A stretch of 16,094 bases of DNA. Source: a virus. This document shows, one piece after another, positions 1-16,094 of this stretch (within the stretch, counting starts at the first letter, position 1; every line of letters starts with the position of its first letter). The stretch lies in the UHGV virus genome UHGV-0121456, one strand, 5' to 3'. The position numbers and the translations under genes are program-made. The notes under the pieces are model-generated. The model saw only the letters and a program-made list of their open reading frames with translations, was not told the DNA's origin and ran no database searches.

Positions 1-298
1 CGCGCGTTGTTTCCGGTATATCGACTTTGATGTACGGGTTAATTTGTCTGGCGACCGTGGCAAGGTCTTTATTCAGGAGGGCTTTGCATTCTGCTTCGGT
101 ATACGTTTTACCGGGAATGATGTCTTTTCCGGTGTGTCCGTGACATACAGTCCATACACCAACGATATCTTTATATGGTATGTAGCTGACACCTTCCAGA
201 CCATCGTTACCACTTGGGCCAGTGATTAACACTGATGCTATAGCAATTGCTCCGCCACCAATAGCAGCAGCAACGGCTTTTCGTAATGATGGAGGCAT
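1..298 (-). CDS. R: SAR (signal-anchor-release) endolysin, phage 21 R-like lysozyme; 3' end truncated by the window edge
   Basis: Minus-strand translation from ATG at 298..296 gives [59 protein letters not shown]..., a Gly/Ala-rich SAR N-terminus followed by a lysozyme-like motif. Its start overlaps the holin stop (TAATG). Not in the ORF track because it has no stop inside the window. Confidence 0.85.
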
Positions 299-513
299 TA
301 TTCACCTCTCGCAGCCTTGCGCTTATCTTCTTTAATCTTGAAATAAAGGTTTGTCAGGTACGTCAGCAGGCCAAATACCAAGCTACCCAGCACACCTATT
401 GCTGCCCACTGTGAGGGCGTGACTTTATCGAGCAGCTGTAAAAACCAGTACCCGGCACTACCTGCTGAGGTGCCATAGGCGACACCCGTTGTTAACTTAT
501 CCATGGATTTCAT
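298..513 (-). CDS. S: Class II holin (pinholin, phage 21 S-like) with dual-start motif
   Basis: 71 aa [71 protein letters not shown]: two transmembrane segments and a charged C-terminus. Met1 and Met4 give the antiholin/holin dual start. GAGGTG Shine-Dalgarno upstream of the ATG at 513..511. Confidence 0.85.
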
Positions 514-625
514 AACCCCACCTCGCAGACAAAGCGGGTGTAAATTGAGGGAATACTACGAAACGTAACAGACTCGGAGTCAGTGAATAACTCAGGTATT
601 GGGTTATCAGCTAATATCGAGACTC

Positions 626-658
626 AAAAAATGGAAAAACCCGCTCGACGGCGGGTTT
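626..658 (-). terminator. Rho-independent terminator on the minus strand, tR'-like, upstream of the lysis cassette
   Basis: Perfect 8 bp stem 637-644/651-658 (aaacccgc/gcgggttt) with a 6 nt loop. On the minus-strand RNA it is followed by UUUUUCCAUUUUUU (complement of 626-636). Confidence 0.6.
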
Positions 659-696
659 AAGCTGTGTGACGAAGTAACCACTCTTAACACATTACA

Positions 697-724
697 TGAT
701 AAAATGCGGACCGCGTTAGTAATA
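697..724 (+). promoter_or_regulatory. Candidate promoter for the moron gene (extended -10 TGaTAAAAT at 697-705, or TTAGTA/TAATAT elements at 716-724)
   Basis: AT-rich region 30-55 bp upstream of the ATG at 751 with sigma70-like -10 elements. No strong -35. Read by eye only. Confidence 0.3.
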
Positions 725-750
725 TTTTTCTCATATATTGGGTTCACTAC

Positions 751-1497
751 ATGCGACATAATTTTTCTAAAGACACTATAAAAAAATTAGCAGAGCGGGC
801 AGCATTCATTTGTTCAAACCCTTCATGCCCTAGATTGACCATTGGCCCATCAATTGATGGCAATAAATCAATCAAGACAGGAGTTGCTGCTCACATATGT
901 GCAGCATCTCCTGATGGCCCACGCTATGACATGTCACAATCAGAAACAGAAAGGAAGTCAATTAACAATGGCATATGGCTGTGTGCTACTTGTTCTGTAT
1001 TAATAGATAAGAATCAGGGGCTAGACTATCCGGCACCTGTATTAAGAAAATGGAAAAAAGATCATGAAAGCCTTATAAGCTCCTGTCTTGAAGGTTCGAT
1101 TAATATTACCTTCGATGCTTTGAAATATATTCAACAGCATGATGAAAGAAATCTGGCAAAAAAGATTATAAATGAATTGGATGATAAAGGGGCTTTGTTC
1201 GTAGAATATCATCTTGAAAACCCCTGTTTTGTTGCCGAATCACTCAAAGAGTTAAGAACATGTTTGACCTCTTTGCTTTCTCAAATCCCAGATGAATCAC
1301 CTCTATTTATCGTTTGCAAGTCAATTCGAGAAGCATGCCGTTATTATATGAACAACACTTCTAAAGACGCAGGGATTAAAGAGTTAGAATTTTCGTTGGG
1401 AGCTGTCAGAAAAATCGTAGGTATCAACGTTAAAAGAATATCAGAAACCTACGGGGTTAAACCTAGCCCACAATTATCTACCATAATGCCAGATTAA
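751..1497 (+). CDS. Reverse-oriented moron: 248 aa protein with an N-terminal HNH-like (beta-beta-alpha-metal/zinc-ribbon) motif and an uncharacterised C-terminal domain
   Basis: ATG at 751. Motif C-x4-C ... AAHICAASPDGPRY ... NNGIWLCATCS (CxxC followed by Ser where His is expected). Lower GC than the flanks. Opposite strand to Q and the lysis genes. Followed by its own hairpin. Confidence 0.6.
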   Translation: MRHNFSKDTIKKLAERAAFICSNPSCPRLTIGPSIDGNKSIKTGVAAHICAASPDGPRYDMSQSETERKSINNGIWLCATCSVLIDKNQGLDYPAPVLRKWKKDHESLISSCLEGSINITFDALKYIQQHDERNLAKKIINELDDKGALFVEYHLENPCFVAESLKELRTCLTSLLSQIPDESPLFIVCKSIREACRYYMNNTSKDAGIKELEFSLGAVRKIVGINVKRISETYGVKPSPQLSTIMPD

Positions 1498-1506: not shown

Positions 1507-1550
1507 GCAGCAACAAAGTTAAACTCTATGTTGCTGCCTTAATTTTATTA
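1507..1550 (+). terminator. Candidate intrinsic terminator for the moron transcript
   Basis: Perfect 9 bp stem gcagcaaca/tgttgctgc (1507-1515/1529-1537) with a 13 nt loop, followed by cttaattttatta. It starts 10 bp after the moron stop. Confidence 0.45.
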
Positions 1551-1910
1551 CTCCATTTCTAAACGAATATCCAGCATCGAGAGACAACCATCTATAAACC
1601 CTTCAGCCAACTGTATCTCTATACGTATCAATTTCTCATCTTTTTTGTATGCTTTTGCTATCTTCCTTTTCGAGATGCCATACAGGTAATGAGCCACAAT
1701 CAGAGAGTGCTCATACGGTTTTCTCTTCTTAAGAAGAGCAAGACAACCTTCAATAATTAATGCATCACTATCTGAACAAGCCTGACGTGTTTTGCTTGTA
1801 TAGGGAAGAAGCCCTTTAAACCCAGCAGCTATAGGAGAATAGTCTACTCCAGAACTATCACTCGCCGCCCATGCTCCCCAACGCTCCAGAACCATCTGAA
1901 TATCACGCAT
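1548..1910 (-). CDS. Q: Late-gene antiterminator Q (Q21/QuuD-like family)
   Basis: Translation MRDIQMVLERWGAWAASDSSGVDYSPIAAGFKGLL... matches my recollection of E. coli QuuD. Probable start is ATG at 1910..1908 with GGAG 7 nt upstream; the ORF-track start at 1913 is a TTG. It sits immediately upstream of the lysis region. Confidence 0.8.
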   Translation of the reverse strand: MRDIQMVLERWGAWAASDSSGVDYSPIAAGFKGLLPYTSKTRQACSDSDALIIEGCLALLKKRKPYEHSLIVAHYLYGISKRKIAKAYKKDEKLIRIEIQLAEGFIDGCLSMLDIRLEME

Positions 1911-1927
1911 CAACTTTCTCCACCAAA

Positions 1928-2923
1928 TCAGGCCAACACACCAATCGCCAGCGCGCGATCGATAAAACGAAATATCAGCTCCAGCTGAGAGCCATACTTC
2001 TCTTCAAATGCCACGGTATCCGCATGCAGCTCGTCGTGATGCTTTCTGCACAAAGGCAACACAAAGAGGTCATGCGCTTTTGTACCCATTCCACCCTGAC
2101 CGTGGCCTATCAGGTGGTGGGGATCATCAGCAGGCTTTCCACAACATGCACACGGCTGTGTCTTAACCCAGCGCGTGTACTTTTCATTAACCCAGCGGCG
2201 GCGTTTTGGGCGTAACATAAAAGACTCCGGCGACTCCGGATCCACTTTCAGCGCCAGCACCTTTTTCGCTTTATCCTGGATGATGCTGGTGGCAGGAACC
2301 GAAGGCACAAGGTCACTTTCCCGGGTGACAGACGGCACAACAGGCTTCGGTAATCTCAGTGCCTTACGGGCTGCACTTTCCGGTAAGGCATCCGCCAGAT
2401 CATTACGAATCAGCCACCAGCACAGTTCCGGCATTGTCACAACGTGACTGTCATCAAAACCGAGATCCCGACGCACAACAGACAACACCCAGCGGGCACA
2501 GTTATCCGTTGCCATTGATTCCAGCCGTTCCGTGAACTGATCGCGCAACTGGTTATCGCAATGCCAGCACAGACGGATTGCGCCCGGCGCGTGTCGCATT
2601 GTTGTCATGTTCTCGCTGTGCCAGTCGGAATGAGGCCACTGGCAGCCTTTTTCACGAAGTAACCAGCTTTCAAGACATTCCACGCCACCAGCACGACGAA
2701 TCACTGCCTCATTGCGGAACACTGCCCGAACGGCAGGATCATCCGCCAGCGGTTGTGATGCCGCCGGAACGGCACCACTGGCGAAAGATGAATAACGTTC
2801 CGGCTCAGGCTCCAGCAGGACACGCCCCTGCATAAACAGGGGCATCAGCTCTGAACCTGGTCTGAACAATACGATCCCCATACGCGGGGCAATTTCAGGG
2901 GTCAGTAGTGCTCTCACGGTCAC
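1928..2923 (-). CDS. DUF968-family protein (YdfU-like) with a C-terminal HNH-like Cys/His cluster
   Basis: 331 aa; C-terminal CACCGKPADDPHHLIGHGQGGMGTKAHDLFVLPLCRKHHDELH. Nin-region position between KilA-N and Q. The track start is GTG; the exact start is uncertain. Confidence 0.7.
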   Translation of the reverse strand: MTVRALLTPEIAPRMGIVLFRPGSELMPLFMQGRVLLEPEPERYSSFASGAVPAASQPLADDPAVRAVFRNEAVIRRAGGVECLESWLLREKGCQWPHSDWHSENMTTMRHAPGAIRLCWHCDNQLRDQFTERLESMATDNCARWVLSVVRRDLGFDDSHVVTMPELCWWLIRNDLADALPESAARKALRLPKPVVPSVTRESDLVPSVPATSIIQDKAKKVLALKVDPESPESFMLRPKRRRWVNEKYTRWVKTQPCACCGKPADDPHHLIGHGQGGMGTKAHDLFVLPLCRKHHDELHADTVAFEEKYGSQLELIFRFIDRALAIGVLA

Positions 2924-2924
2924 C

Positions 2925-3734
2925 TCAATGAACGGTATCGAGCAGCTTTAACAGCTCAGGGAATCGGGATTCGAAGAAATGCGGCTGCGTCTCGCGCGGA
3001 TTTGCGGGACTGGTGATGTTCTTGCCGAACATGCAGCCTTTCGCTGTCAGTGACCAGAATTTTTTGATGTTGTTAATCGCGGTACGGCTGTATCGTTCGC
3101 GCTGCTCGACGATCCCCAGCTTCACCATCTGGTGATATGCCTGATTAGCTGTCAGGCGGATACCATACTGCTTCAGCAGTGCACTCAGTGACAGCGTGGG
3201 GCGGCTTGAGCCATCAGGCGCGTCAGCAGGAGCATCAATGGCATAGCGCGGTGCCAGATTCGGTAAGCCAACAGCCTCCTGGAGTTTCTGACAGGCCCCA
3301 AGCACTGAAGAGTTAGACAGGTTTAACTCCCTGCGCATAAAGTCCAGCAGAATCACTCCAGCCTGCATCTTGTCAGCAGCCTGCCCGGATAATTTTTCCG
3401 GTGCGCTGGTTACCATATCGAAAGTACGGATCACCTTCAGATGGAATGACGGGCTGATCCACATTGCATAGGCATACACCAGTTCTTTGCAGACATACGT
3501 CCCCTGGTTATTTCCGCCATTAATGACGCTAACTGGTTGATTTTGTTCCAGAGGCGGAATTCCACCCTCGGTGAAAAGTTGTTCAATCAATTCACAGGTT
3601 TGCTTATTGGAGAGCCAGTATTTCGGGCGGTTTTTTTGTTCTCCCCCGGCTGCCCTGTGCAGATCGTTCAGGCTGTAACGCCCATAAGCATCACGACGAA
3701 CTTCAATACCATCAATAACCATCAGATTATTCAT
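2925..3734 (-). CDS. KilA-N domain protein (antirepressor-like)
   Basis: N-terminus MNNLMVIDGIEVRRDAYGRYSLNDLHRAAGGEQKNRPKYWLSNKQTCELIE fits the KilA-N DNA-binding domain. ATG at 3734 with a GGAGA Shine-Dalgarno. Confidence 0.7.
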   Translation of the reverse strand: MNNLMVIDGIEVRRDAYGRYSLNDLHRAAGGEQKNRPKYWLSNKQTCELIEQLFTEGGIPPLEQNQPVSVINGGNNQGTYVCKELVYAYAMWISPSFHLKVIRTFDMVTSAPEKLSGQAADKMQAGVILLDFMRRELNLSNSSVLGACQKLQEAVGLPNLAPRYAIDAPADAPDGSSRPTLSLSALLKQYGIRLTANQAYHQMVKLGIVEQRERYSRTAINNIKKFWSLTAKGCMFGKNITSPANPRETQPHFFESRFPELLKLLDTVH

Positions 3735-3753
3735 ACTTCGTTTCTCCTCTTAA

Positions 3754-4143
3754 TCAGGCGGCTGCACCCGCCGGTTTCTCGTACTTACTGATAGTGATCT
3801 CGACCTTCCCTTCCGGGATAACCGGTCCCCACTCCACCAGCATTCTTTTCACCTGACTGTCGTCTTCCCACACACCCGCGTGGGTCAGGGCGTCAAACAG
3901 CGCCTTGTTATAGTTGTCCAGATCGCGGATCCGGTTATCCGGAGGAAACAACACGATCTCCACTGAAGCAGGTGCCGACGTTGGTTTCGGCAGACGACGT
4001 AACTGCTCAACTATTGCTGCACACGCCGCGCTCTGGAATTTGCGCCCCGCCGCGCTTATCAGGCTCTTACCTGCAAACGCCCCTTTGTTGGGGTGTCGCC
4101 AGTACGAGTTCACGCTGGGCGGGAAAGGCAGGATCAGCTTCAT
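3754..4143 (-). CDS. rusA: RusA-family Holliday junction resolvase
   Basis: 129 aa with the RusA signature LPFPPSVNSYWR ... RIRDLDNYNKALFDALTHAGVWEDDSQV. ATGA overlap with the upstream gene. Confidence 0.85.
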   Translation of the reverse strand: MKLILPFPPSVNSYWRHPNKGAFAGKSLISAAGRKFQSAACAAIVEQLRRLPKPTSAPASVEIVLFPPDNRIRDLDNYNKALFDALTHAGVWEDDSQVKRMLVEWGPVIPEGKVEITISKYEKPAGAAA

Positions 4144-4466
4144 ACTTTCAGGCCCCTCTCATGTAACCAGTGGGCTGCACGCAGCCTGCCGTTTTCCTCA
4201 CCGGCAAGCAGTGCGCGGATAATCCCGACCGCCTCGCTGTCGTCGTCCTTCACCGCGGTATGAAGCGTTATCCCCCGGGCCACGCCACGCTTTATCGTGA
4301 TGACGCCTTTTTTCTCCAGTGCGCGAAGATGCTCTACCGCTGCATTCACTGAACGATATCCCAGCATGGTTGCCACCTCCTGATTGGTTGGCGGGAAGCC
4401 ACGTTCTTTCTGGTAAGAAATCAGCATATCCAGCACCTGCTGCTGGCATTGAGTTAACATCGTCAT
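4140..4466 (-). CDS. LexA-like N-terminal DNA-binding domain protein lacking the S24 peptidase domain
   Basis: 108 aa. LTQCQQQVLDMLISYQKERGFPPTNQEVATMLGYRSVNAAVEHLRALEKKGVITIKRGVARGITL resembles the LexA winged-helix domain. No Ser/Lys peptidase part. ATGA overlaps at both ends. Confidence 0.65.
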   Translation of the reverse strand: MTMLTQCQQQVLDMLISYQKERGFPPTNQEVATMLGYRSVNAAVEHLRALEKKGVITIKRGVARGITLHTAVKDDDSEAVGIIRALLAGEENGRLRAAHWLHERGLKV

Positions 4467-5116
4467 GCCGTCATCTCCCTGACCAGTTTTTCCGCCTGCT
4501 GGCGAACCTGCGCCAGAAAGGCCTCACCACATGCCTCAAGTTCATCGCGCCCGATGTAGCTGATTGCCGGTCCCTTCCAGGTCTTGTCGAAAACAGCAAT
4601 AGCACCAGCGAAGAAAGCGCCTGTCGGCACCTGCTTCTCATCCTTCGGGATAAACCAGGCAGGCAGTTCAAAACCAATACGCCCGCGAATAAAAGCAATA
4701 TGGTCTGCGTCTTCCGGCCACCATACTTCGCTGGTGGCAGCTTTGATCAGGAAAACATAGCGCCCGCCTTTATCACGCATGGCACTGGCATGCTTCATGA
4801 TGTAACGCATGCCGGTGATGTATTGCCCCTCATGCTGACTGGCGCGGCTGTATGGGGGATTACCAAAGGCAGCACCTTTAAGCTCCGCAAGACGTTCTGA
4901 CCAGTCATGCGCCAGCGCGTTGTCTTCCGCCGTGTAATACGCGGCACATTTGGCGTTATCACCGTCAGTGAACAGATCCAGAACAAACGGACCAAACAGG
5001 GTGTTAATTCCCCAGAAAATGTTATCTGGCGTGCGCCACTGATCGCCCACTTCCTTCAGTTCATGGGCTGGTTTGTTCCGCAGTTCCACCAGTGCCTGAC
5101 AATATTTATTACTCAT
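4463..5116 (-). CDS. Phage N6-adenine DNA methyltransferase (Dam-like, Phage_N6A_met type)
   Basis: FGNPPYS catalytic motif. Probable start is ATG at 5116..5114 (MSNKYCQ...) with GGGGG Shine-Dalgarno and TAATG overlap with the upstream gene; the ORF-track start at 5149 is an in-frame GTG inside the upstream gene. Confidence 0.8.
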   Translation of the reverse strand: MSNKYCQALVELRNKPAHELKEVGDQWRTPDNIFWGINTLFGPFVLDLFTDGDNAKCAAYYTAEDNALAHDWSERLAELKGAAFGNPPYSRASQHEGQYITGMRYIMKHASAMRDKGGRYVFLIKAATSEVWWPEDADHIAFIRGRIGFELPAWFIPKDEKQVPTGAFFAGAIAVFDKTWKGPAISYIGRDELEACGEAFLAQVRQQAEKLVREMTA

Positions 5117-5604
5117 TAAGCCCCCACGTAATTCCCTGACAGATACCACTCATCACTCGATACAGCGCGCTTGCTGCTTTTCCGTAAACACTGCTCACGA
5201 CGCGCCAGAAAATTGTTTCGTTCTGGCTGGGAATGGCTTTCACGGAATGCCGCCATCCACACCGTTGCAGCACGACGGTATAAGCCCCTGGACTCCAGTT
5301 CTTCAGCCTGGCGGGTCAGGCACAAAATCTCCCGCGGGTCGTTAGTGCCGACATAGAAATTGCGCACAGGTCTGGTTTCACGAACTGGTTGCGGTTCCGC
5401 CTCCTGCGCTCTCTCAGTCAGGCGCGGGAAATGTCTGCGTGTATCCCCTTCACAACGGTGAGCCACACGACCACTCTGACGTAACTTGCTTGCTGACTGC
5501 AGAACGCGCTGCCGTGAGTAACCAGCAAAAGCATCCGCAATGTCTCCGGAAGTACACCCCGGATGGGCTTCAATGTATTTCTGAACTTCATTCAAAAGAC
5601 TCAT
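5116..5604 (-). CDS. PerC/ANR-family regulator-like protein
   Basis: C-terminal LESRGLYRRAATVWMAAF resembles the PerC/ANR motif. Probable ATG at 5604..5602 with GGGGG Shine-Dalgarno, directly after the replication gene stop. Family assignment is from memory of the motif. Confidence 0.5.
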   Translation of the reverse strand: MSLLNEVQKYIEAHPGCTSGDIADAFAGYSRQRVLQSASKLRQSGRVAHRCEGDTRRHFPRLTERAQEAEPQPVRETRPVRNFYVGTNDPREILCLTRQAEELESRGLYRRAATVWMAAFRESHSQPERNNFLARREQCLRKSSKRAVSSDEWYLSGNYVGA

Positions 5605-5606
5605 GA

Positions 5607-6548
5607 TCACCCCCTGAATCCTGCCGGGATCTGGCTGTAGTCCACGTTGTCGTAACTGGCTTTGAAGTACGGGTCTTCGCGTTTTTCGGTGTACGTGCTG
5701 ACGGACGGCGATAAGCGCAGGGAAAGCTCATCCCATTTTTCCCGCAGCTTCGACGGGCTGAGCACGTTACGGCACCAGAACGGATCGCGGCTGACGCGGC
5801 TGTACATCTCGCAGATTTGTTTGTGAGTACGACCATCCTGCACACACATCAGGCGAATTTCGTTTGCCCAGGCTGTCCAGTTCGGTTCTTTGGGACGAAC
5901 CACCTCGCCGTCACATTCGGCGGCCTGCTCGTACAGGGCGATGATTTTTTTCCAGAGCCACTGTGCGCAGGTCAAATCATCCTGCGTTCCCCACTGGCGC
6001 TTTTTAGGGCTGAATACAACCGCATCAGGATGGCGAGTTAAAAAATCCTGTTCATCCGTCTGCGTGTCCGGTTGCGAAGCGTCCGGACGAGAAGGTTTTT
6101 TATCTGACGGATCATGTTTTGATTTTACTGACGGATCCCCGCCAGATTCTGACGGGTGAAAACCCGCTTTTTTGCCAGATTTCGACGCATCAAATTTTGA
6201 CGGGTCAGATTTTGATGCGTCAGATTTTGACGGGTCAGAATCTGACAGTTGAGAAAATGCCGCTGCCTGAAGCTTCGCAACGTTAAGCTGATAAACATTC
6301 GACGCATTGCGGTTACCCTGGCGACGCGCCTTACGCGTTAACCAGCCTTCTGCTTCCAGCCGTGCGATAGCCGTTCTGACGGTACTCATCCCCGCGCCAA
6401 TCTGACGGGCAATGGTTTCAATTGATGGCCAGCACACACCTTCGTCATTACTGAAATCAGCCAGGCGGGCCATAATTGCCACGCTGGATAATTTCATGCC
6501 TGACGCTGCGCAACCATCCCATACATAGCCGGTTAATTTAGTGCTCAT
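5607..6548 (-). CDS. Replication initiation protein (lambda O-like organiser): N-terminal helix-turn-helix, repeat-encoded linker, C-terminal domain
   Basis: N-terminus [70 protein letters not shown] is a winged-helix replication-initiator type. Internal SDPSKSDASKSDPSKFDASKSG repeats are encoded by DNA iterons. Position is cro-proximal. Confidence 0.7.
   Translation of the reverse strand: MSTKLTGYVWDGCAASGMKLSSVAIMARLADFSNDEGVCWPSIETIARQIGAGMSTVRTAIARLEAEGWLTRKARRQGNRNASNVYQLNVAKLQAAAFSQLSDSDPSKSDASKSDPSKFDASKSGKKAGFHPSESGGDPSVKSKHDPSDKKPSRPDASQPDTQTDEQDFLTRHPDAVVFSPKKRQWGTQDDLTCAQWLWKKIIALYEQAAECDGEVVRPKEPNWTAWANEIRLMCVQDGRTHKQICEMYSRVSRDPFWCRNVLSPSKLREKWDELSLRLSPSVSTYTEKREDPYFKASYDNVDYSQIPAGFRG
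6145..6253. repeat. Iterons (about 15 bp tandem repeats, ATTTTGACGGGTCAG-like): candidate replication origin inside the initiator gene
   Basis: Units at 6194-6208, 6209-6223 and 6224-6238, with degenerate copies at about 6145-6161, 6176-6193 and 6239-6253. A moderately AT-rich stretch lies at 6085-6125. Confidence 0.6.
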
Positions 6549-6717
6549 GACCGACCTCTATTTCCCTGAATTTACGACGAAACTGTTCGAGCGGGCTGAA
6601 GCACTCATGCTCATAGCCTTCACGGAGGTAGATAACCCGTTGTGTTTCCGGCTCCCAACGAATGACTCTGACGGGCACTCCGTAGTGATCTTTGAACCAG
6701 CGGTTAACTTGTCGCAA
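6538..6717 (-). CDS. Alternative-frame small ORF (59 aa, TTG start) or the true C-terminus of the preceding gene after a frameshift
   Basis: Frame ending at TAA 6540..6538 encodes [58 protein letters not shown]. It overlaps the replication-gene ATG (ATGAGCACTAA). AAGGAG at 6731..6726 lies 8 nt upstream of TTG at 6717..6715. Confidence 0.35.
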
Positions 6718-6896
6718 AGGACTGTCTCCTTCTGCCGGTTGAAATCACCCACAGCCCACTCAGCAAAGCTGTGGGTTACAATTTCCCTGTCACCTGGTAC
6801 ATTCACTGCATAGCAATACTCCACCTTCGCTTTTCCACCCGGTACAGGAAGCGCAATCAGTTGCGAGCGACGGTAGTGTGTTGTTAAACTGTTCAT
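6558..6896 (-). CDS. Hypothetical protein, frame-conflicted; the N-terminal half looks genuine, the C-terminal half looks like out-of-frame translation
   Basis: ATG at 6896..6894 is coupled (ATGA) to the upstream CII-like gene. The second half ([55 protein letters not shown]) is Ser-rich and low in complexity. Confidence 0.4.
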
Positions 6897-7456
6897 GCGT
6901 TAGTTTCTCCACAGTCACGACACGCCACGGCGCCCGGAGCTGCACACTCGCGGGCGTCACTACTTTCTGAAACGCAAAAGATTTTGTAGACCAGTGCTGC
7001 ATGCTCCTGCAGCTTCGAAATTGAGAGATACAGCTCGTCGTTAATTGCTGTCTTCTCATGCGGTTCCACTACACCGTCTTCGATTGCTGAACGAATCTGT
7101 TTTGAATAACTGCCGATCTGTTCAATGACTTCCAGCAGACGCTGGTTAATATCGGCGTTGTCCACATCCTCGACGTCAGGAAGAGACACAAAGACGCCAT
7201 TTGCAGACTGCGCCACAGCGTCAGCAATGAAGTGAGTTCCACCAGCACGTTGCAAAATCATTGCCCATCCCAGCGGGAAAATCTGATCGCCATCGGCACG
7301 AAGGCGGTTAAATAATGCGTTCTCTGTTACATCCAGCCAGTCAGCAGCTTCAGCGTAACCCCCCGGCAACGCTGCGATAGTTTTTCTGACAGCTTTCACG
7401 TACCACTCAGGCTGTTTTTCTATTTTCCAGTGATGCTTACCCACGGTTAGCCTCAT
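6893..7456 (-). CDS. CII-like or YdaT-like early regulatory protein (tentative)
   Basis: 187 aa immediately downstream of cro on the same strand, the position lambda cII occupies. Family assignment is tentative and from memory. Start is ATG at 7456, or GTG at 7444 with an AGG Shine-Dalgarno. Confidence 0.45.
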
Positions 7457-8488: not shown

Positions 8489-8492
8489 ATAC

Positions 8493-8667: not shown

Positions 8668-9159
8668 CTACAGATTGCCGTTAAGTTTTCTGGACAACTC
8701 CTCAATGGATGGAGGCGATACATAATCTGGATTTTTATTCATCAGAAACTTATTTTCACAGTGGAGGCACCTGCTTTTATGAAAAAGCTCATCTTCGCTA
8801 ACCGGGAATGGTTGAAGTATCGATACTATCTTTTGTCCAAAACATTTTGGGCAAAGATGCATGGTTATGCTGCCACCGTTCACGATTACCTCCTTCGAGT
8901 ATACAAAAGTACCCGACTCAAGTTGGTTAAGGATATAGCCTTCCGTCTGAGCCTCAAAGTTTTCGAATTCTGCAATTTTAGCTTTGAGAGAAGCATTTAT
9001 TTCTTGATAAGAGCCCACCAGTTCAACGAGAGACACGCATTCGCGCTGAATAGACGCAAGCTTTGAGTTCAGCTCACCAATAGCCGCATTTACTTCAGCT
9101 TGAGTTTTTGCCTCGTTCATTAGTTTTGCAATCTGGGCTGTTTCACGAATAGCCGTCAT
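8668..9159 (-). CDS. Hypothetical coiled-coil protein with a C-terminal Cys4 zinc-ribbon-like motif (CPKC ... CLHC); candidate accessory gene next to cI
   Basis: About 163 aa from ATG at 9159..9157 (MTAIRETAQIAKLMNEAKTQAEVNAAIGELNSKLASIQ...); GTG at 9183 is an alternative start. The upstream part of the 259 aa track ORF looks like junk. AT-rich island on the strand opposite to cI. Confidence 0.55.
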   Translation of the reverse strand: MTAIRETAQIAKLMNEAKTQAEVNAAIGELNSKLASIQRECVSLVELVGSYQEINASLKAKIAEFENFEAQTEGYILNQLESGTFVYSKEVIVNGGSITMHLCPKCFGQKIVSILQPFPVSEDELFHKSRCLHCENKFLMNKNPDYVSPPSIEELSRKLNGNL

Positions 9160-9197
9160 TGCTGCCGTTAATTCAGCGATCACATTGAATACTCTTA

Positions 9198-9243
9198 TTG
9201 TTGTTGGGGATATCCAGATTAACCGAATCCTTGTTGTTGGGGA
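9198..9243. repeat. Two exact 13 bp direct repeats TTGTTGTTGGGGA (9198-9210 and 9231-9243) upstream of the zinc-ribbon gene
   Basis: Exact copies 33 bp apart, 40-85 bp upstream of the start codon at 9159 on the minus strand. Candidate regulator-binding sites. Confidence 0.5.
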
Positions 9244-9469
9244 ATAACCAGGTCCACCTCGCCTGATGTGGCTAAAAGCAGGCACATAACAGCTAAGTAT
9301 TTTCAACCAGAGAGAATCCTTAGCGTTGTGGTGAATGCGGCTCAGCGCACGCGGGTTAAGGTTGAGGCTGACAGTCGACCTTCTGTGGATACCCACCCGC
9401 CTGGTGTGCAACCTTCGCCAGGCACCGGGAGGCACCCGGCACCACAACTTTATGCTGTGTGTAGTCCTG

Positions 9470-9515
9470 GCGGTACCAGTTTGTACCCTTGCTTCCAGCT
9501 GGTACCGCTCTTTTT
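9470..9515 (+). terminator. Strong intrinsic terminator (tL-like) in the structured intergenic region
   Basis: 10 bp perfect stem gcggtaccag/ctggtaccgc (9470-9479/9499-9508) with a 19 nt loop, followed by tcTTTTTac. Confidence 0.55.
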
Positions 9516-9652
9516 ACAAAACAGAGAAGAGCATCACCGGACGACGGGCTCATAACCCAATCCATCCGGGCGGCTGCCACCGCAGGTGTTCTTCTCTGTT
9601 TTGTGGAGAAACCAACCGACCTTGCAGGGTCGATATGATGAGGAACAGCAAA

Positions 9653-10015
9653 ATGGCTAGCGAACGCAGTACTGATGTGCAGGCATTTATCGGGGAGCTG
9701 GACGGCGGCGTATTTGAAACCAAAATCGGCGCAGTTCTCAGTGAAGTCGCTTCCGGTGTGATGAACACGAAAACCAAAGGGAAGGTCTCACTCAACCTGG
9801 AAATCGAACCATTTGATGAGAACCGTGTGAAAATCAAACACAAACTCTCATATATTCGCCCGACTAACCGCGGGAAAATTTCCGAAGAAGACACCACCGA
9901 AACGCCGATGTATGTCAATCGCGGTGGTCGCCTGACTATTCTGCAGGAAGACCAGGGACAATTACTGACTCTTGCCGGTGAACCTGACGGAAAACTCCGC
10001 GCAGCAGGTCATTAA
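9653..10015 (+). CDS. yfdP: YfdP-like prophage protein (120 aa)
   Basis: ATG at 9653 with GAGGAA 7 nt upstream. The N-terminal extension in the track (from 9335) is Arg/Cys-rich junk. Symbol assigned from remembered size and synteny with the CPS-53/KplE1 yfdPQRST block, not from sequence recall. Confidence 0.55.
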   Translation: MASERSTDVQAFIGELDGGVFETKIGAVLSEVASGVMNTKTKGKVSLNLEIEPFDENRVKIKHKLSYIRPTNRGKISEEDTTETPMYVNRGGRLTILQEDQGQLLTLAGEPDGKLRAAGH

Positions 10016-10080
10016 TATCGTTTTTAATAAACTGATTATTTATCTCATCACTGAATATTTTTATATAGTGAGGATTTATT

Positions 10081-10905
10081 ATGTCTCAGAACTTAGACGC
10101 AACCGCAATTAATCAAATCCATGCCCTTATTTCTGCTCAGGGTGTTAATGAAATTATCAGTAAGATTGGTGCCGATGCTGTGGCATTGCCTGAGAATTTC
10201 CGCATTCATGATCTGGAAAAATTTAATTTAAATCGCTTCCGTTTCCGTGGCGCGCTTTCCACTGCCAGCATCGATGACTTTACCCGTTATTCTAAAGATC
10301 TTGCAGATGAAGGCACCCGCTGCTTTATCGATGCCGATAATATGCGAGCCGTCAGTGTGCTTAACCTGGGCACTATTGATGAACCTGGTCATGCAGATAA
10401 CACTGCCACTCTCAAACTGAAAAAGACAGCCCCGTTCTCTGCTCTGTTGTCTGTTAATGGCGAGCGTAACTCCCAGAAGTCACTGGCAGAATGGATTGAA
10501 GACTGGGCCGACTACCTTGTGGGCTTTGATGCTAATGGTGACGCCATTCAGGCAACAAAAGCAGCTGCGGCAGTCCGTAAAATCACAATTGAAGCAAACC
10601 AGACCGCTGATTTTGAAGACAATGACTTCAGCGGCAAACGCTCTCTGATGGAGTCTGTCGAAGCGAAGACCAAAGACATTATGCCAGTGGCATTTGAATT
10701 TAAATGCGTTCCGTTTGAAGGTCTGAAAGAACGTCCGTTTAAATTACGCCTCAGCATTATCACTGGCGATCGTCCTGTACTGGTTCTGCGCATTATTCAG
10801 CTGGAAGCGGTGCAGGAAGAAATGGCTAACGAATTTCGTGATCTGCTTGTTGAGAAATTCAAAGACAGCAAAGTAGAAACCTTTATTGGTACTTTCACCG
10901 CCTGA
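10081..10905 (+). CDS. yfdQ: YfdQ-like DUF2303-family protein (274 aa)
   Basis: ATG at 10081 with GAGGA upstream. Size and neighbours (120 aa, 274 aa, 178 aa HD protein, 120 aa) match my recollection of the K-12 CPS-53 yfdP-yfdS block. Confidence 0.7.
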
Positions 10906-10916
10906 TTTCATTACTG

Positions 10917-10940
10917 CAAATGCCCCTGCGGGGGCATTTA
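10917..10940 (+). terminator. Candidate intrinsic terminator after the yfdQ-like gene
   Basis: 9 bp GC-rich stem aaatgcccc/ggggcattt (10917-10925/10930-10938) with loop tgcg, followed by a short T/A tail. Confidence 0.4.
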
Positions 10941-11033
10941 TGGAAACGTAATTAACTCAATAATCGCCTGAAGGCGAGGGTTTTCTTTAACCAAAATTCA
11001 GCGCGGTGCAGCGCATATAACGTGGAGAACAAA

Positions 11034-11570
11034 ATGTCATTTATTAAAACTTTTTCCGGGAAGCATTTTTATTATGACAGGATAAATAAAGACAACATCG
11101 ATATTAACGATATCGCGGTTTCCCTTTCAAATATCTGTCGCTTTGCCGGTCATCTTTCACACTTCTACAGCGTCGCCCAACATGCGGTGCTTTGCAGCCA
11201 GCTGGTGCCGCAGGAATTTGCTTTTGAAGCGTTAATGCATGATGCAACAGAAGCGTATTGCCAGGACATCCCCGCGCCACTGAAACGCCTTCTTCCTGAC
11301 TATAAACGGATGGAAGAAAAAATAGACGCCGTAATCCGTGAGAAATACGGGTTACCCCCGGTTATGAGTACGCCCGTGAAATATGCCGATCTCATCATGC
11401 TGGCAACCGAACGCCGTGATCTCGGGCTTGATGATGGCTCTTTCTGGCCTGTACTGGAAGGCATCCCGGCAACAGAGATGTTCAACGTGATTCCACTGGC
11501 ACCTAGCCATGCCTACGGGATGTTTATGGAACGTTTTAACGAGTTATCGGAGTTACGCAAATGCGCATGA
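11034..11570 (+). CDS. yfdR: HD-domain phosphohydrolase (YfdR-like, 5'-deoxynucleotidase family), 178 aa
   Basis: HD motif region ...HAVLCSQLVPQEFAFEALMHDATEAYCQDIP... Probable start is ATG at 11034 with GGAG 6 nt upstream; the track start at 11022 is GTG. Confidence 0.75.
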   Translation: MSFIKTFSGKHFYYDRINKDNIDINDIAVSLSNICRFAGHLSHFYSVAQHAVLCSQLVPQEFAFEALMHDATEAYCQDIPAPLKRLLPDYKRMEEKIDAVIREKYGLPPVMSTPVKYADLIMLATERRDLGLDDGSFWPVLEGIPATEMFNVIPLAPSHAYGMFMERFNELSELRKCA

Positions 11571-11923
11571 ATGTTTTCGAAATGGAAGGGTTTCTTCGCG
11601 GGAAATGTGTACCGCGAGATCTGAAAGTGAACGAAACAAATGCTGAGTACCTGGTACGTAAATTCGACGCGCTTGAAGCTAAATGTGCGGCACTGGAAAA
11701 CAAAATAATACCAGTGTCAGCTGAACTGCCACCAGCAAATGAAAGTGTTCTGTTATTTGATGCTAACGGAGAAGGCTGGCTGATTGGCTGGCGTTCTCTC
11801 TGGTACACCTGGGGACAAAAAGAAACCGGAGAATGGCAGTGGACATTTCAGGTCGGGGACCTTGAAAACTTCAATATCACTCACTGGGCAGTAATGCCAA
11901 AAGCGCCGGAGGCTGGAGCATAA
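11561..11923 (+). CDS. yfdS: YfdS-like protein (120 aa) with a DUF551-like C-terminus
   Basis: ATG at 11561 with GGAG upstream; overlaps the yfdR-like stop. C-terminal ITHWAVMPKAPE motif. Confidence 0.6.
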   Translation: MRMNVFEMEGFLRGKCVPRDLKVNETNAEYLVRKFDALEAKCAALENKIIPVSAELPPANESVLLFDANGEGWLIGWRSLWYTWGQKETGEWQWTFQVGDLENFNITHWAVMPKAPEAGA

Positions 11924-12543
11924 TGACCACTTTCACCGATAAGGAACTGATTAAAGAAATCAAAGAACGAATCGGCAGCTTAGACGTGCGAGACAATGTT
12001 GAGCGCCGTGCTTATGAAATTGCTCTGGCATCACTGGAAGCAGAGCCGGTGGCGTGGCTTCATTCAGACAATGGCTTAGGTATTCCGGCAATAACCAGGA
12101 GCAAAAACATTGCTGACAGTTGGTTATCAAGGGGCTGGTATGTTCAGCCGCTATATATGGCTCAGCCAGTGTCGGTGGTGCCGGATGCTCTTCCGTCTTT
12201 AAATAATGGCATAGTCGGCTTTGATGAAGGCTGGAACGCCTGCCGCGCCGTCATGCTTCATGGTGCCGAACCTGTAAGCCAGACTTACAAGTTGAACAAG
12301 CTGTCGGGCAACTCTCCGGTAACTCCGGATGGTTGGATAAGCTGTAGTGAGCGAATGCCGAACGATAAACAGTATGTTTGGTGTTGGGGGAAGTCTTACG
12401 GCTGGACTGAGTGCGATACCTTCGAAGGGTATTACGATTGGTCGAGAAACAAATGGTGGGCAATTACTGACGATGGGGAAGAACCGGCATCGAAAGTAAC
12501 CCACTGGATGACGCTACCGGAGCCACCGCAGGAGGTGAAGTAA
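11923..12543 (+). CDS. DUF551 domain protein (YfdT-like region)
   Basis: 206 aa. C-terminus WISCSERMPNDKQYVWCW ... THWMTLPEPP is typical of DUF551. TAATG coupling with neighbours at both ends. Confidence 0.65.
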   Translation: MTTFTDKELIKEIKERIGSLDVRDNVERRAYEIALASLEAEPVAWLHSDNGLGIPAITRSKNIADSWLSRGWYVQPLYMAQPVSVVPDALPSLNNGIVGFDEGWNACRAVMLHGAEPVSQTYKLNKLSGNSPVTPDGWISCSERMPNDKQYVWCWGKSYGWTECDTFEGYYDWSRNKWWAITDDGEEPASKVTHWMTLPEPPQEVK

Positions 12544-12758
12544 TGAACAACTTAATGACAACTAAACAAGTCGCCGACTTCTGTGGCGTTTCAGTATCGA
12601 CCGTTCTTCGCTGGAACAGTGTAAACAGGAGAACTGGCCAGAAATACAGGCCAGACTTTCCAGATCCTGATATTAAATCCTGCCCAAATAAATGGGCATC
12701 ACGTAAGATTTACAAATTTGCCGGAGTTATTGAGGAATGTGAAGCAGCTCAGATATGA
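12543..12758 (+). CDS. Excisionase-like or AlpA-family helix-turn-helix DNA-binding protein (putative recombination directionality factor)
   Basis: 71 aa. MTTKQVADFCGVSVSTVLRW is a helix-turn-helix. GGAGG Shine-Dalgarno. Last gene of the early-left operon, near the integrase. Confidence 0.6.
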   Translation: MNNLMTTKQVADFCGVSVSTVLRWNSVNRRTGQKYRPDFPDPDIKSCPNKWASRKIYKFAGVIEECEAAQI

Positions 12759-12801
12759 GATGACACATCCTATAGCACATAGCCAAACATAGCAATCAGA
12801 C

Positions 12802-12826
12802 TGTCCGCTTTGTGTTGAAGCGGACA
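12802..12826 (+). other. Stem-loop downstream of the xis-like gene (8 bp stem tgtccgct/agcggaca); possible terminator or boundary of the cargo island
   Basis: Perfect 8 bp inverted repeat with a 9 nt loop and no clear U-tract. It marks the transition into the AT-rich cargo region. Confidence 0.3.
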
Positions 12827-12988
12827 TTGCCGCAGCGACTTGTCTTAGCCATAAATAACCAAAACGATGCGCTGTTCATATAAAGTTCTTTTAAACTTCA
12901 AATCAGTAATTTTTGTCTAAATCTTTTCAAACTCATAAAAACCAGTAAGATAAGAAATCACCTTTACCTGTTTTTATGAGAGGCATAA

Positions 12989-14215
12989 ATGATTGATAAT
13001 GAAGTTAAAATTTTTGCAAAAGAAAAAGAAAAAATGCTGTGCAACAAACTTTCTTTTTACAGGGAGCATGCTCAATCGAGTGAAGATACAAGAAAAAGAA
13101 ACGAATTTGAACGAGACTATGCGCGTATTCTTTATTCCTCTTCGTTCCGCCGGTTACAGGGGAAAATGCAGCTCTTTGAAGTCGATCCTCAAAAATTTAA
13201 CCGTAATAGACTGACTCATAGCCTAGAAGTTGCCCAGATAGCCCGAAGCATCGCATCCGAACTAGAACTTGAACATCCTGTTGTAGCAGAACTGGCTGCA
13301 CTTGCTCACGATATTGGCAACCCTCCGTTTGGTCATTCCGGTGAAAAAAAGCTAAACGATATTGCTAATGATTTCGGCGGCTACGAAGGCAATGCACAGG
13401 CACTTAGAATACTCAGAAGTCTCGAGATAAAGCATCCAAATTGCCCCGGTCTCAACCTTACCCACCGTGCCATTCTCTCCGTCGTTAAATATCCTTATAA
13501 AAAGGAAAACGGCAGAAAAAAATATCTTTATAATGATGACTATAAATACTACACAGAATTGGTAAATAGATATGAATTAGATTTGCAGACTGGCGAGAAG
13601 ACCATTGATGCACAGATAATGGATCTGTCAGACGAAATTGCATATGCCGCGCATGACCTTGAAGATGCACTAAGCCGTAGCATGGTCAGTATTGAAGATA
13701 TTTTTTATGAGTTTGGGATATCCAAGTACAAAGACTCAATTGATTTATTAAATACAATCATTGAAAAATCTAAATATACAGCTTCGAGAGCATCAAGACT
13801 CAATTCATCTGAAGAGTTCGCCATAATATTCAGAAAGGAATTGACATCCAATATTGTTAATGCGCTTGTTAATGATATTACTGTTATTCAAAGTGAAAAT
13901 GGATTCAAGCAACTTGGATTTAGCACTACAAAAAATCTGTCTGCAGGCCTTAAAGATATCGTATTTAAAGTCATCATGCGAAAAAGAGATATTAAAAGTT
14001 ATGAGCACAAAGGAAACATTATCATCGAAGATTTATTTAATTTTTATAATTATAGAGATAACATAGAATTCATATCCCCTCAACTGTATAGAACGCTCCC
14101 AAATAAAATAGAGCCTATTTATCAAGAACTTAAAAAACGTGCAATTGTCGACTACATCTCTGGAATGATGGATACATTTGCCATCCGCGAGTGGGAAACG
14201 CATCACAAAAAATAA
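12989..14215 (+). CDS. dGTPase-family HD-domain deoxynucleoside triphosphate triphosphohydrolase (Dgt-like); candidate nucleotide-depletion defence gene
   Basis: 408 aa. Motifs RLTHSLEVAQIARSIA, HDIGNPPFGHSGE, YEGNAQALRIL, DLSDEIAYAAHDLEDAL, VDYISGMMDTFAIREW match E. coli Dgt signatures. ATG at 12989 with GAGAGG Shine-Dalgarno. Sits in a strongly AT-rich island between the xis-like gene and the integrase. Confidence 0.85.
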   Translation: MIDNEVKIFAKEKEKMLCNKLSFYREHAQSSEDTRKRNEFERDYARILYSSSFRRLQGKMQLFEVDPQKFNRNRLTHSLEVAQIARSIASELELEHPVVAELAALAHDIGNPPFGHSGEKKLNDIANDFGGYEGNAQALRILRSLEIKHPNCPGLNLTHRAILSVVKYPYKKENGRKKYLYNDDYKYYTELVNRYELDLQTGEKTIDAQIMDLSDEIAYAAHDLEDALSRSMVSIEDIFYEFGISKYKDSIDLLNTIIEKSKYTASRASRLNSSEEFAIIFRKELTSNIVNALVNDITVIQSENGFKQLGFSTTKNLSAGLKDIVFKVIMRKRDIKSYEHKGNIIIEDLFNFYNYRDNIEFISPQLYRTLPNKIEPIYQELKKRAIVDYISGMMDTFAIREWETHHKK

Positions 14216-14261
14216 CCAAACTGGCGCACATCAACAACAGATTCAGTGCCACTCTTCCCAT

Positions 14262-14283
14262 GGGACAGAACAGTGATTCTGTC
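14262..14283 (+). other. Hairpin downstream of the dGTPase gene (8 bp stem ggacagaa/ttctgtcc, 6 nt loop); possible terminator
   Basis: Perfect inverted repeat 47 bp after the stop, preceded by the palindrome CCCATGGG. Weak U-tract. Confidence 0.3.
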
Positions 14284-14586
14284 CATTATCACCCGATTAT
14301 ACAGATAAGCCACATCTAGTAGTTCTGAGCTAGCATTTTCCACATTGATTACGCTTCCGTGCACATCGTTATTTTTAACCAAAAAGAAAGGACATATGCA
14401 AAAATAATATCAAGTAACGGAGTGTGTTAAATCGTAACCAATCATCTTTACTTTACATTTCGTAACTTAAACCGTACGTTTTCTAAACATTAAATATACA
14501 CTTTGCGCTGTAAGTTGTATCTCTCCGTTAAGCTCACTGCTCAACGCCAATAGTCATATTTTATTGCGTTCTGGCTGCGCAAATTG

Positions 14587-15810
14587 TCAACTGGAATCTG
14601 AACTAGGACAAGTAACGAGCGATTCAACCCTCTCCCACCATACCTGGTAGGCTTTACGCTGTTCTTCTAGATAATCGCTCTTGTCATAAACCTGCCATAC
14701 CCCTGGCAGCTTATGACCAAGCATAATTTCTGCAATATGAGGCGCAGTAAGATCAGAAAAGTTTGTTCGTGCTGTTCGCCTCAAATCATGAAGAGACCAA
14801 TGAGGGAATTGATACCCCAAACGTCGCCATGCGAACTGCATTAAATTGTAAGGCAGCGACTGCAATGATGTCCGACCAACTGGCTCCCTGCTTCCTTCCT
14901 TAGTAAAAAGCATATCGGAACCGTTGTTCATAGAGATAACGTATTTTATAAGCTCTTCAACCGGTTCAATAATGGGCCGCTTTAGTGGTTCGCCTGTTAT
15001 CTCCCCTGTCTTATGTCGTTCTGGCGGTACAGTCCATACCTTATTAATGAAATCAAAATCGTCCACCCTGGCGGTAATTAGCTCTGAACTACGGCAGCCA
15101 AAATGCAGCAATAGTTTAATGAAGGCCCGGTATTTAGGAACCATTCGAGAACCATCGATCGCAGCATAAAGGATTTTAATTTCATCATGTGTCAGAAACC
15201 GTTTCTTCTGACCTTTACGGATATCCATATCTTTACCCGTGATATCCGACAGCGGGCGAGTTTCAATGAGCTTTCTCTTATACGCCCAGACATGGGCCTG
15301 CTTTGCGTTAATTAGTAATCGGTCTGCTATTGCTGGAGCCTTAGTGCTAAGAGGCTCCAGGACTTCTAACCAATCATGCAATGTAGCTGCATCGTGAGGG
15401 ATATTCCCGATTTTAGAGAACAGGTGCAACTCAAACGAGCGGAGTATCTGTTCAGAACCCTTTTTATTTTTTACACAATATGCTTCATACCAGGCACGGA
15501 TCACAGACTCTACCGTCATGGCTTCAGTAGCTTTTCGTTTTTCAGCCTGCTTGACCAATCGTGGATTACGGTTTGACTCGAGTTCACCACGGAGACGGAT
15601 AACTTCTTCTCTGGCCTCTTTTAATCCAGTTGCCGGGTAAGTTCCGATATCAAGACGCTCACCTTTCCCTGCCCATTGATAACGATATTGGAACACTACG
15701 CGACCTTTCGGTGATACTCTGACAGACAGACCATCACGATCGGATTTAACCAAAACCTTATCACGTTCCTTTCCAACGACTGAACGCAACCACGCATCAG
15801 ACAGCGCCAT
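14587..15810 (-). CDS. int: Tyrosine-type site-specific integrase (P4-like, with N-terminal arm-binding DUF4102-like domain)
   Basis: 407 aa. N-terminus MALSDAWLRSVVGKERDKVLVKSDRDGLSVRVSPKG...YRYQWAGKGERLDIGTYP. C-terminal catalytic signatures HDLRRTART and a terminal Tyr region. AGGTGA Shine-Dalgarno before ATG at 15810. Confidence 0.9.
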   Translation of the reverse strand: MALSDAWLRSVVGKERDKVLVKSDRDGLSVRVSPKGRVVFQYRYQWAGKGERLDIGTYPATGLKEAREEVIRLRGELESNRNPRLVKQAEKRKATEAMTVESVIRAWYEAYCVKNKKGSEQILRSFELHLFSKIGNIPHDAATLHDWLEVLEPLSTKAPAIADRLLINAKQAHVWAYKRKLIETRPLSDITGKDMDIRKGQKKRFLTHDEIKILYAAIDGSRMVPKYRAFIKLLLHFGCRSSELITARVDDFDFINKVWTVPPERHKTGEITGEPLKRPIIEPVEELIKYVISMNNGSDMLFTKEGSREPVGRTSLQSLPYNLMQFAWRRLGYQFPHWSLHDLRRTARTNFSDLTAPHIAEIMLGHKLPGVWQVYDKSDYLEEQRKAYQVWWERVESLVTCPSSDSS

Positions 15811-15818
15811 TACTCACC

Positions 15819-15877
15819 TTGTACAAATCGCAAAACACCTCTGCTGCTTTGTACATTATGTACAAGCATATGTACAG
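15819..15877. promoter_or_regulatory. Cluster of four TGTACA hexamers upstream of int (15820-15825, 15850-15855, 15859-15864, 15871-15876), including the palindrome TTGTACAttaTGTACAA
   Basis: Same TGTAC core as the OR/OL operators. Lies in the int promoter and att-proximal arm region, which is AT-rich. Confidence 0.35.
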
Positions 15878-16094
15878 ATTTTTGATGAAAGCAACCTGAT
15901 CGATTTAAAGTTACATGAAAGAATCTTCAATTAAAAAGTCACACAAATATATGTATTTAAATGATTTATATGACCAAAACTCAATTAACTGAAAGGATTT
16001 TGAAAGAGTAAAAGAGCTTTAATTTGGGCTTAATTATTGGGGTGAGAAATAATGGCAAAAGTGCGGCGCTTCGCCACCTCTTGCAAATAAGGAG

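Follow-up and report, generated by a model that had tools for sequence, protein, structure and literature searches.

Prophage hotspots loaded with defense genes are well known, and the search for new bacterial immune genes is most productive there. Several described defense proteins are close to the genes considered here. Phage defense through depletion of dGTP has been described for the dGTPase family (Tal et al., bioRxiv 10.1101/2021.04.26.441389). Rip1 (ring interacting pore 1) combines sensor and effector in one protein; twelve copies assemble on the small-terminase ring of an invading phage, or on the portal in the case of Pseudomonas phages, and form a membrane pore (PMC13434031). In type VI Thoeris, the effector ThsG carries DUF6650 as its effector domain and the signal is 2'cADPR, and DS-27, a single-gene system containing DUF6650, has been validated experimentally (DefensePredictor). 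Here, we analyzed UHGV virus genome UHGV-0121456, a stretch of 16,094 nucleotides that is referred to below as the window. We consider it quite probable that it is the early region of a lambdoid prophage with three recombinational cargo slots, each holding one self-contained gene whose likeliest job is to protect the lysogen from other phages: an HNH-DUF6650 protein in slot 1, a Rip1 homologue in slot 2, and a dGTPase in slot 3. Each slot is bounded by conserved phage sequence. In this model, homologous recombination in these flanks would exchange the cargo, and the gene inside would shield the lysogen and, in doing so, the prophage.

The origin of the window was determined with megablast searches of phage records and of 5426 complete E. 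coli genomes, which also served as the set for all genome surveys below. The window is the inverted early region, from int to Q, of an E. coli lambdoid prophage of the cdtI / SfIV / PhiR29 / Stx2c type, and it is present at 99.9% identity in four genomes (e.g., strain 13P477T), integrated next to yjjG. A previous sequence-only reading had described three AT-rich islands, at 751-1500, 8620-9200, and 12760-14580, each carrying a single accessory gene acquired independently of the core phage genes, and had proposed presence/absence polymorphism among related prophages as a check. We carried out this check by aligning the window with phage cdtI and ten other related loci. Homology broke at 722-739 and 1543-1569 for slot 1 (seen with L001 and L008-L011), at 8550-8647 and 9200-9468 for slot 2, and at 12733-12788 and 14558-14592 for slot 3 (L001 and L004-L007). 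In prophages that otherwise share 94-98% identity, unrelated DNA took the place of all three segments while the flanks were conserved. The slot 1 cassette (730-1542) has a guanine-plus-cytosine (GC) content of 37.6% and is replaced or absent in relatives. The slot 3 cassette runs from the end of xis to the int stop codon (12789-14562; 36.8% GC). The core of the slot 2 cassette lies at approximately 8631-9291, and the segment replaced in comparison to cdtI is wider (8551-9467). The neighboring stretch 9328-9638 is GC-rich (52-57%), is annotated as a frameshifted hypothetical gene in RefSeq, and gave no PHROG hit. Since its left part, 9200-9467, is itself variable among relatives, slot 2 may consist of two adjacent variable segments.

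The cargo was also far rarer than the sequence around it. The slot 1 gene was found in 25 genomes, at various chromosomal positions and with an identity of at least 99% in every case; the Q gene beside it was found in 414 genomes, only 28 of which carry it at 99% identity or more. Slot 2 cargo is present in 697 genomes, compared to 1324 with this cI, and slot 3 cargo in 44, compared to 700 with this int. Empty sites were then searched for with synthetic junctions of joined flanks as queries. Many genomes join the left anchor of slot 1 to the 3' end of Q in one piece, which was verified in L023, and, therefore, true empty alleles of slot 1 exist. Slot 2 has shrunk to 385 gene-free bp in cdtI and in strain STLEFF_47. 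At slot 3, none of the 718 genomes with the flanks joined xis to int within about 0.8 kb (12788/14563 junction); this slot is, therefore, always filled, and its polymorphism is one of replacement. All three segments are cassette slots. The islands were not universally conserved with the core, and replacement between conserved flanks, together with the rarity of the cargo, bears out the view that these are independently acquired accessory genes.

The base composition of the window was less uniform than the sequence-only reading had suggested. Whole-window GC is 46.8%. A backbone of about 50% GC or more had been claimed, which holds for the replication/nin region of the right arm (1914-7490; 53.3%) but not elsewhere, as the early-left arm (9335-12758) has 47.8%, int 45.5%, and cI 44.9%. 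Island 1 (751-1500) has 37.6% GC, with a binomial z of -5.3 against the rest of the window, and falls within the lowest 5-7% of windows of the same length. Island 3 (12760-14580), at 37.1% (z = -9.4), lies below every non-overlapping window of equal length. Island 2 (8620-9200) has 42.0% GC (z = -2.4) and reaches only the 21st percentile among same-length windows, and the whole segment replaced in comparison to cdtI, 8551-9467, is at the window mean with 46.0%. Jensen-Shannon segmentation, for which random sequence was used to set the threshold (at about its 99th percentile), returned three AT-rich segments: 672-1858 (37.6%), 12670-14504 (36.7%), and 15848-16094 (31.6%). The first of these takes in the core gene Q. 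Island 2 was not set apart by the segmentation and stayed within a 46.5% domain spanning 6957-12669. The third segment is the most AT-rich stretch of the window; it corresponds to the att end, where the prophage meets host yjjG, and had not been listed before. The description of three AT-rich islands is, in summary, correct for islands 1 and 3 and marginal for island 2, and it leaves out Q and the att end.

Codon usage gave a similar result. The island 1 and island 3 genes deviate from the backbone, whose mean GC content at third codon positions (GC3) is 0.478 (standard deviation 0.086): their GC3 values are 0.285 and 0.316, with 9.1% and 9.0% rare codons, respectively. The island 2 gene does not deviate, as its GC3 of 0.392 and 4.8% rare codons fall inside the spread of the core genes. 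The codon-adaptation weights were approximate genome-wide E. coli K-12 frequencies, and only the ranking of the genes is trustworthy. Core genes were also low in GC3, including Q (0.316), int (0.379), xis (0.373), and cI (0.415, with 9.4% rare codons). Q has a GC content of 41.5%, and its GC3 ranges from 0.316 to 0.352 depending on the codon-counting mode. Because Q, int, xis, and cI are likewise low, AT-richness does not separate accessory from core genes here.

This raises the possibility that low GC is simply the normal composition of lambdoid regulatory and integration modules and that the islands are ancestral phage sequence that was never acquired. The AT-richness and poor codon adaptation of Q, int, xis, and cI fit this explanation, as does the failure of the segmentation to part Q from island 1 or to separate island 2. 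Q is also inherited along with its cargo: its identity is 82-92% in relatives with other cargo and 99.5% in those with the same cargo, while the adjacent DUF968 gene stays at 97-98%, suggesting that the Q allele and the cargo travel together. The AT-rich block extends to about 1858 because Q diverges with the cargo. The explanation is largely refuted, however, by the replacement of all three segments with unrelated DNA in otherwise near-identical prophages, and the rarity of the cargo and the empty alleles of slots 1 and 2 also stand against it. We therefore give it very little probability. In relatives, the GC fraction of the cargo is 0.33-0.41 at slot 1, 0.39-0.54 at slot 2, and 0.34-0.36 at slot 3 with the exception of Dsr1 (0.51). 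Dsr1 and the range at slot 2 show that AT-richness is typical of cargo without being universal. GC content alone would overlook part of the cargo, namely that of slot 2 and the Dsr1 of slot 3, and would wrongly flag core genes such as Q and int. Under the model of acquired cargo, most, although not all, cargo would come from AT-rich gene pools and give rise to the compositional mosaic.

The slot 3 gene (12989-14215, plus strand, convergent with int) encodes a dGTP triphosphohydrolase of the anti-phage type, WP_023154557.1, of 408 amino acids. It matches the PADLOC dGTPase model (8.7e-105) and TIGR01353 (313 bits against a cutoff of 152), as well as Pfam HD (8.6e-14) and HD_assoc. The protein has the metal ligands H77, H107-D108, and D215, and 9vwa is its nearest match in the PDB (E = 1e-113). 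The protein shares with anti-phage dGTPases and SAMHD1-like dNTPases the HD fold, intact ligands, a single-gene organization, and location on a mobile element, and it belongs to a different clade than E. coli Dgt. As a SAMHD1-like enzyme, it would be expected to deplete dGTP during infection.

The slot 2 gene lies on the minus strand at 8668-9183 and encodes WP_000559922.1, a 171-amino-acid protein that RefSeq calls hypothetical and that we identify as a Rip1 homologue. A plus-strand open reading frame (ORF) at 8620-9066, which begins at the coordinate given for island 2 and was apparently the one read previously, was considered and rejected as a shadow ORF: it has no Pfam or PHROG match, it contains stops in relatives, and its substitutions fall at codon position 1. 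For the minus-strand gene, third codon positions take 21 of the 30 substitutions that separate it from a 93%-identical allele and 97 of the 192 that separate it from a 75%-identical allele. The minus-strand product also matches phrog_1244. The third-position bias, the breakage of the plus-strand ORF in relatives, and the phrog_1244 match show that the real slot 2 gene is on the minus strand. Identity with orf40 of cdtI was ruled out as well, since orf40 maps to 9386-9841 of the window, antisense to yfdP.

The similarity to Rip1, known from phage HK446 and Pseudomonas prophages, covers the full length of the protein. A profile comparison with PDB chain 9oox_L gave an E value of 3.3e-20, aligning residues 5-152 with 15-160 of 164. 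An N-terminal helical hairpin is followed by a C-terminal beta/zinc-ribbon domain with four cysteines, as in Rip1 (PDB 9oox), and the architecture that defines Rip1, an N-terminal amphipathic helical region and a C-terminal ring-contacting domain, is found in the window protein. Both proteins come from prophages, and the HK446 rip1 gene is likewise antisense inside the pL operon. The window homologue differs in its length (171 compared to 164 amino acids) and in its position directly after pL instead of after an N gene. By analogy with Rip1, it would ring the small terminase or portal of an invading phage and form a membrane pore, and the cell would die before the phage matures. The 8493-8520 promoter that we presume to be pL is a strong, near-consensus sigma-70-like site on the plus strand (TTGACA-16-CATAAT, 11 of 12 matches) with operator-like TGTAC repeats. 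It follows the cI terminator (8465-8484, plus strand), and both elements belong to the flank before slot 2 that is conserved throughout the relatives. In a Rac-like prophage of O157:H7, a 93%-identical allele of the Rip1-like gene was found at L012 2538-3053, between racR/DUF1391 and a truncated exonuclease. The gene was also found beside a different cI in L005 and L013. Alleles beside racR and other cI genes suggest that it moves among prophages whose immunity regions differ. In about 700 genomes, O157:H7 included, a gene so far called hypothetical can now be read as a Rip1 homologue.

The slot 1 gene (751-1497, plus strand, convergent with Q) encodes WP_001406331.1, a protein of 248 amino acids with a Cap5-type HNH nuclease domain at about residues 1-115 and a four-helix-bundle, DUF6650-like domain at about residues 121-248. 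For the HNH domain, H48, N73, N88, and four cysteines are invariant. DefensePredictor lists the exact window protein as a 'Predicted novel defense gene'. The C-terminal bundle gave matches to generic folds only. All 120 homologues among the matches listed carry the precomputed tag PF20355.5 (DUF6650). When the C-terminal domain alone was searched against 1.84 billion representative proteins, 171 matches were found, many of them stand-alone proteins of 150-170 amino acids, and 7 of 10 sampled passed the PF20355 gathering score. The DUF6650 assignment of the window protein, therefore, probably holds transitively. PDC-M68 was a PADLOC candidate for this gene and was rejected: only residues 1-130 match, to positions 1-130 of the 253-position profile, and the single-gene cassette has no B partner.

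A 60%-identical homologue occupies the same Q-adjacent slot in other prophages. Another homologue, 53% identical, was seen in Hydrogenophaga (L016 5001-8164), where the same run of genes includes an AbiV-like HEPN gene and one for a DUF4062 protein; this context is defense-island-like and outside prophages. A PADLOC search beside the distant homologues for a PDC-M68B-like or TIR partner returned only that AbiV-like gene near the Hydrogenophaga copy. The window protein shares its type of HNH domain with Cap5, the HNH-SAVED effector of CBASS. Cap5, however, has a SAVED sensor and an adjacent CD-NTase, whereas the window protein lacks SAVED and its cassette lacks a CD-NTase. In type VI Thoeris, an adjacent TIR protein (ThsB) makes the 2'cADPR for ThsG, and the window cassette has no TIR gene. 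Neither of the two papers examined mentions the combination of HNH with DUF6650, and 'HNH' does not occur in the type VI Thoeris preprint. The protein would most likely be an abortive-infection nuclease, with the C-terminal domain gating or oligomerizing the nuclease. It is possible, although unlikely, that this partnerless protein is an orphan effector heeding the signals of other immune systems, or a stand-alone sensor-effector whose helical domain recognizes a phage cue. If this is true, DUF6650 effectors would have a concrete toxic output, for which the Thoeris study offered no explanation in the case of the non-membrane forms. The HNH-DUF6650 gene, having no partner, is a good test case for how DUF6650 effectors kill, and it is the most interesting loose end of this analysis.

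The site of slot 1 differs from what had been assumed. In Stx phages, Q is followed by the pR'/tR' region and then by tRNA genes. In the window, the left anchor of slot 1 (627-729) is 83-92% identical in relatives with five different cargos and contains an intrinsic terminator on the late strand (658-637). In UTAK-3, a relative without cargo, about 20 bp separate the anchor (1501-1620 in the cargo-free L023) from the stop codon of Q, and four tRNA genes and the holin come next, in that order. Given the standard lambdoid layout, the anchor is probably the late promoter/qut/tR' region; -35 and -10 elements of pR' were sought by eye inside it, and none was convincing. The cargo-free order of Q, anchor, tRNA genes, and holin suggests that slot 1 cargo is inserted between Q and the site on which Q acts, and that it is not part of the late transcript. 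The slot 1 gene had been placed at a classic moron position, and as the position of stx this does not stand. Slot 1 is bordered by the stop codon of Q and by the conserved anchor with its presumed late promoter and terminator, and the stx-type slot is instead the interval 530-634 between the late terminator and the holin. That interval is empty in the window. In relatives (L001, L005, L006, L008, and L009), it holds a 350-amino-acid DNA methyltransferase with a small ORF, or tRNA-Arg/Ile genes.

Each island had also been credited with its own start signals and a terminator hairpin. Hairpins were found after all three genes, but only the one in island 2 has a full U-tract. The likely terminator of the slot 1 gene is a hairpin at 1507-1537, between this gene and the convergent Q (-15.2 kcal/mol, z = -5.3 on the plus strand). 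It is followed by CUUAAUUUUA, a partial U-tract, and folds on the minus strand too. The Rip1-like gene ends in an intrinsic terminator on the minus strand (8630-8609; a stem followed by TTTTGTTGCT) that lies in the flank common to alternative cargos. The hairpin past the dGTPase gene (14263-14284, plus strand) has no U-tract; the 85-nt segment has a folding energy of -21.8 kcal/mol (z = -2.9). The start signals are weakly supported. For the slot 1 gene, a weak promoter-like match with an extended -10, TGATAAAAT, was found at about 697-705, inside the anchor and facing the cargo, and it could drive whichever cargo is inserted. The slot 3 gene has a weak promoter-like 4+4 match at 12924-12951, and none was found within 216 nt upstream of the slot 2 gene. 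Under the defense model, all three genes would be expressed from the repressed prophage.

Support for a role in defense also comes from what else occupies these slots. The alternatives (ALTERNATIVES) at slot 3 include Borvo BovA (PADLOC E = 3.9e-241), AbiU (2.6e-111), and PDC-M01 A+B; an HNH protein with a partner that resembles double-stranded RNA-binding proteins; a 515-amino-acid unknown protein; and, by RefSeq naming, an anti-phage dCTP deaminase and Dsr1. At slot 1, relatives carry a KAP NTPase matching PDC-S20 (2.1e-177), an SDH-family Clp-fold protease, DUF6731 with a small gene, or an OmpD porin. Slot 2 holds unrelated small genes in relatives, the ECs1072 family, YmfI, and hypothetical proteins of 159 and 170 amino acids. 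The alternative cargo is, thus, largely made up of known or candidate defense genes. The principal cargo gene of slot 2 is on the minus strand, antisense to pL, in 6/6 sampled relatives, and the slot 1 cargo is convergent with Q in 6/6 sampled cases, that of the window included. This consistent orientation fits insulation from lytic transcription. The cargo of the window itself comprises an anti-phage-type dGTPase, a homologue of Rip1, and a predicted defense gene, which supports the view that the three sites are places to look for defense functions.

Another possible explanation is that the three genes serve the prophage's own lytic cycle, the HNH protein as a packaging or homing nuclease, the dGTPase as a remodeler of the nucleotide pool, and the Rip1-like protein as an accessory to lysis or exclusion. 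HNH proteins aid the terminase in some phages, packaging proteins interact with Rip1-type proteins, and the window contains other genes of nucleotide metabolism, such as the 5'-deoxynucleotidase yfdR. However, close relatives do without the three genes, whose orientation is opposed to that of the lytic operons beside them, the HNH domain belongs to the Cap5 effector type and not to the terminase-associated type, classic defense genes are found as allelic cargo, and depletion of dGTP would harm the phage's own replication. We regard a lytic role as highly unlikely.

The cargo could also consist of host-fitness or virulence morons unrelated to phage defense, or of decaying selfish genes that have no current function. 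The OmpD porin at the same slots, Bor/Iss at nearby slots in relatives, and the several alternative cargos that match no defense hidden Markov model could be accounted for in this way. Decay, on the other hand, is difficult to reconcile with three intact ORFs in which catalytic and zinc-binding residues are conserved and with the mostly third-position substitutions of the Rip1-like gene, and all of the family assignments point to anti-phage functions. An origin as non-defensive morons or decaying genes is, in our view, highly unlikely.

The defense reading itself has several points against it. Composition does not single out island 2, some cargo at these slots is not defensive, as with the OmpD porin, and a consensus promoter scan returned no strong sites for the cargo genes. 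The dGTPase scored below the NCBI cutoffs for 'anti-phage dGTPase' (NF041026, 275.6 against 400; NF003701, 243 against 383), and the Rip1 homologue is just 27% identical to the characterized Rip1 (BLASTP E = 2e-11). For the HNH-DUF6650 protein, no TIR or cyclase partner is present in the cassette (730-1542), and the neighbors Q and holin are not TIR proteins. No member of its family reached the Pfam gathering score in a local PF20355.3 scan, where the window protein gave no hit and 3 of 51 homologues gave weak ones. Alignment of the family by hhalign to a validated SMEK-DUF6650 protein, WP_087896215.1, showed no similarity, and this is a weak test because the template was a single sequence. 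In addition, no phenotype was found in the literature for any of the three exact proteins; defense phenotypes and triggers are predicted here from the protein families. With these caveats, the analysis supports the earlier interpretation as essentially right.

The gene order of the remaining backbone was drawn from ORFs, Pfam and PHROG scans, and RefSeq annotation. The holin (298-513, minus strand) precedes slot 1. The antiterminator Q (1548-1913, minus strand) is a core gene that matches PF06530 (Pfam, 1.9e-52). Between Q and cro (7488-7688, minus strand) lie DUF968, KilA-N, RusA, a LexA-like gene, a Dam-like methylase, PerC/yfdN, an O-like replication gene, and the cII-like ymfL, all on the minus strand. 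cI (7779-8453, plus strand) is followed by slot 2 and the frameshifted pseudogene (about 9328-9638). The plus strand then carries yfdP, yfdQ, yfdR, two DUF551-type genes, and xis (12543-12758), and the tyrosine integrase int (14587-15810, minus strand; present in about 700 of the 5426 genomes) forms the right flank of slot 3. No Rfam family (at gathering thresholds) and no tRNA was found when the window was scanned for them. TGTAC inverted repeats (ATATGTAC..GTACATAT and CTTGTACC..GGTACAAG) were seen by eye at 7689-7778, between cro and cI, and similar half-sites flank the 8493-8520 promoter (8490-8535, also by eye). These repeats look like the oR and oL operators of a ymfK-type repressor. Three stretches of the replication module, 5132-5526 (the 5' part of PerC/yfdN), 5683-6592 (the O-like gene), and 6667-6859 (ymfM), have no homology in cdtI despite conserved flanks. 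This is further mosaicism that is unrelated to AT content.

The arrangement as a whole resembles the defense hotspots of P2 and P4 (Rousset et al. 2022, PMC9122126) and the lambdoid morons (rexAB, sieB, bor, lom, and stx). In these systems, as in the window, conserved flanks enclose swappable and mostly AT-rich cargo, often a single-gene defense, and the slots adjoin int and the immunity region or lie near Q. The window differs in having a cdtI/SfIV-type lambdoid backbone at yjjG and in the placement of slot 1 between the Q stop codon and the presumed pR', with the cargo always directed against Q. A further difference is that slot 3 was filled in all 718 genomes surveyed. Three slots are now mapped at base-pair resolution on a common E. 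coli prophage backbone, and compared to the hotspots already described, the window adds new members and not a new kind.

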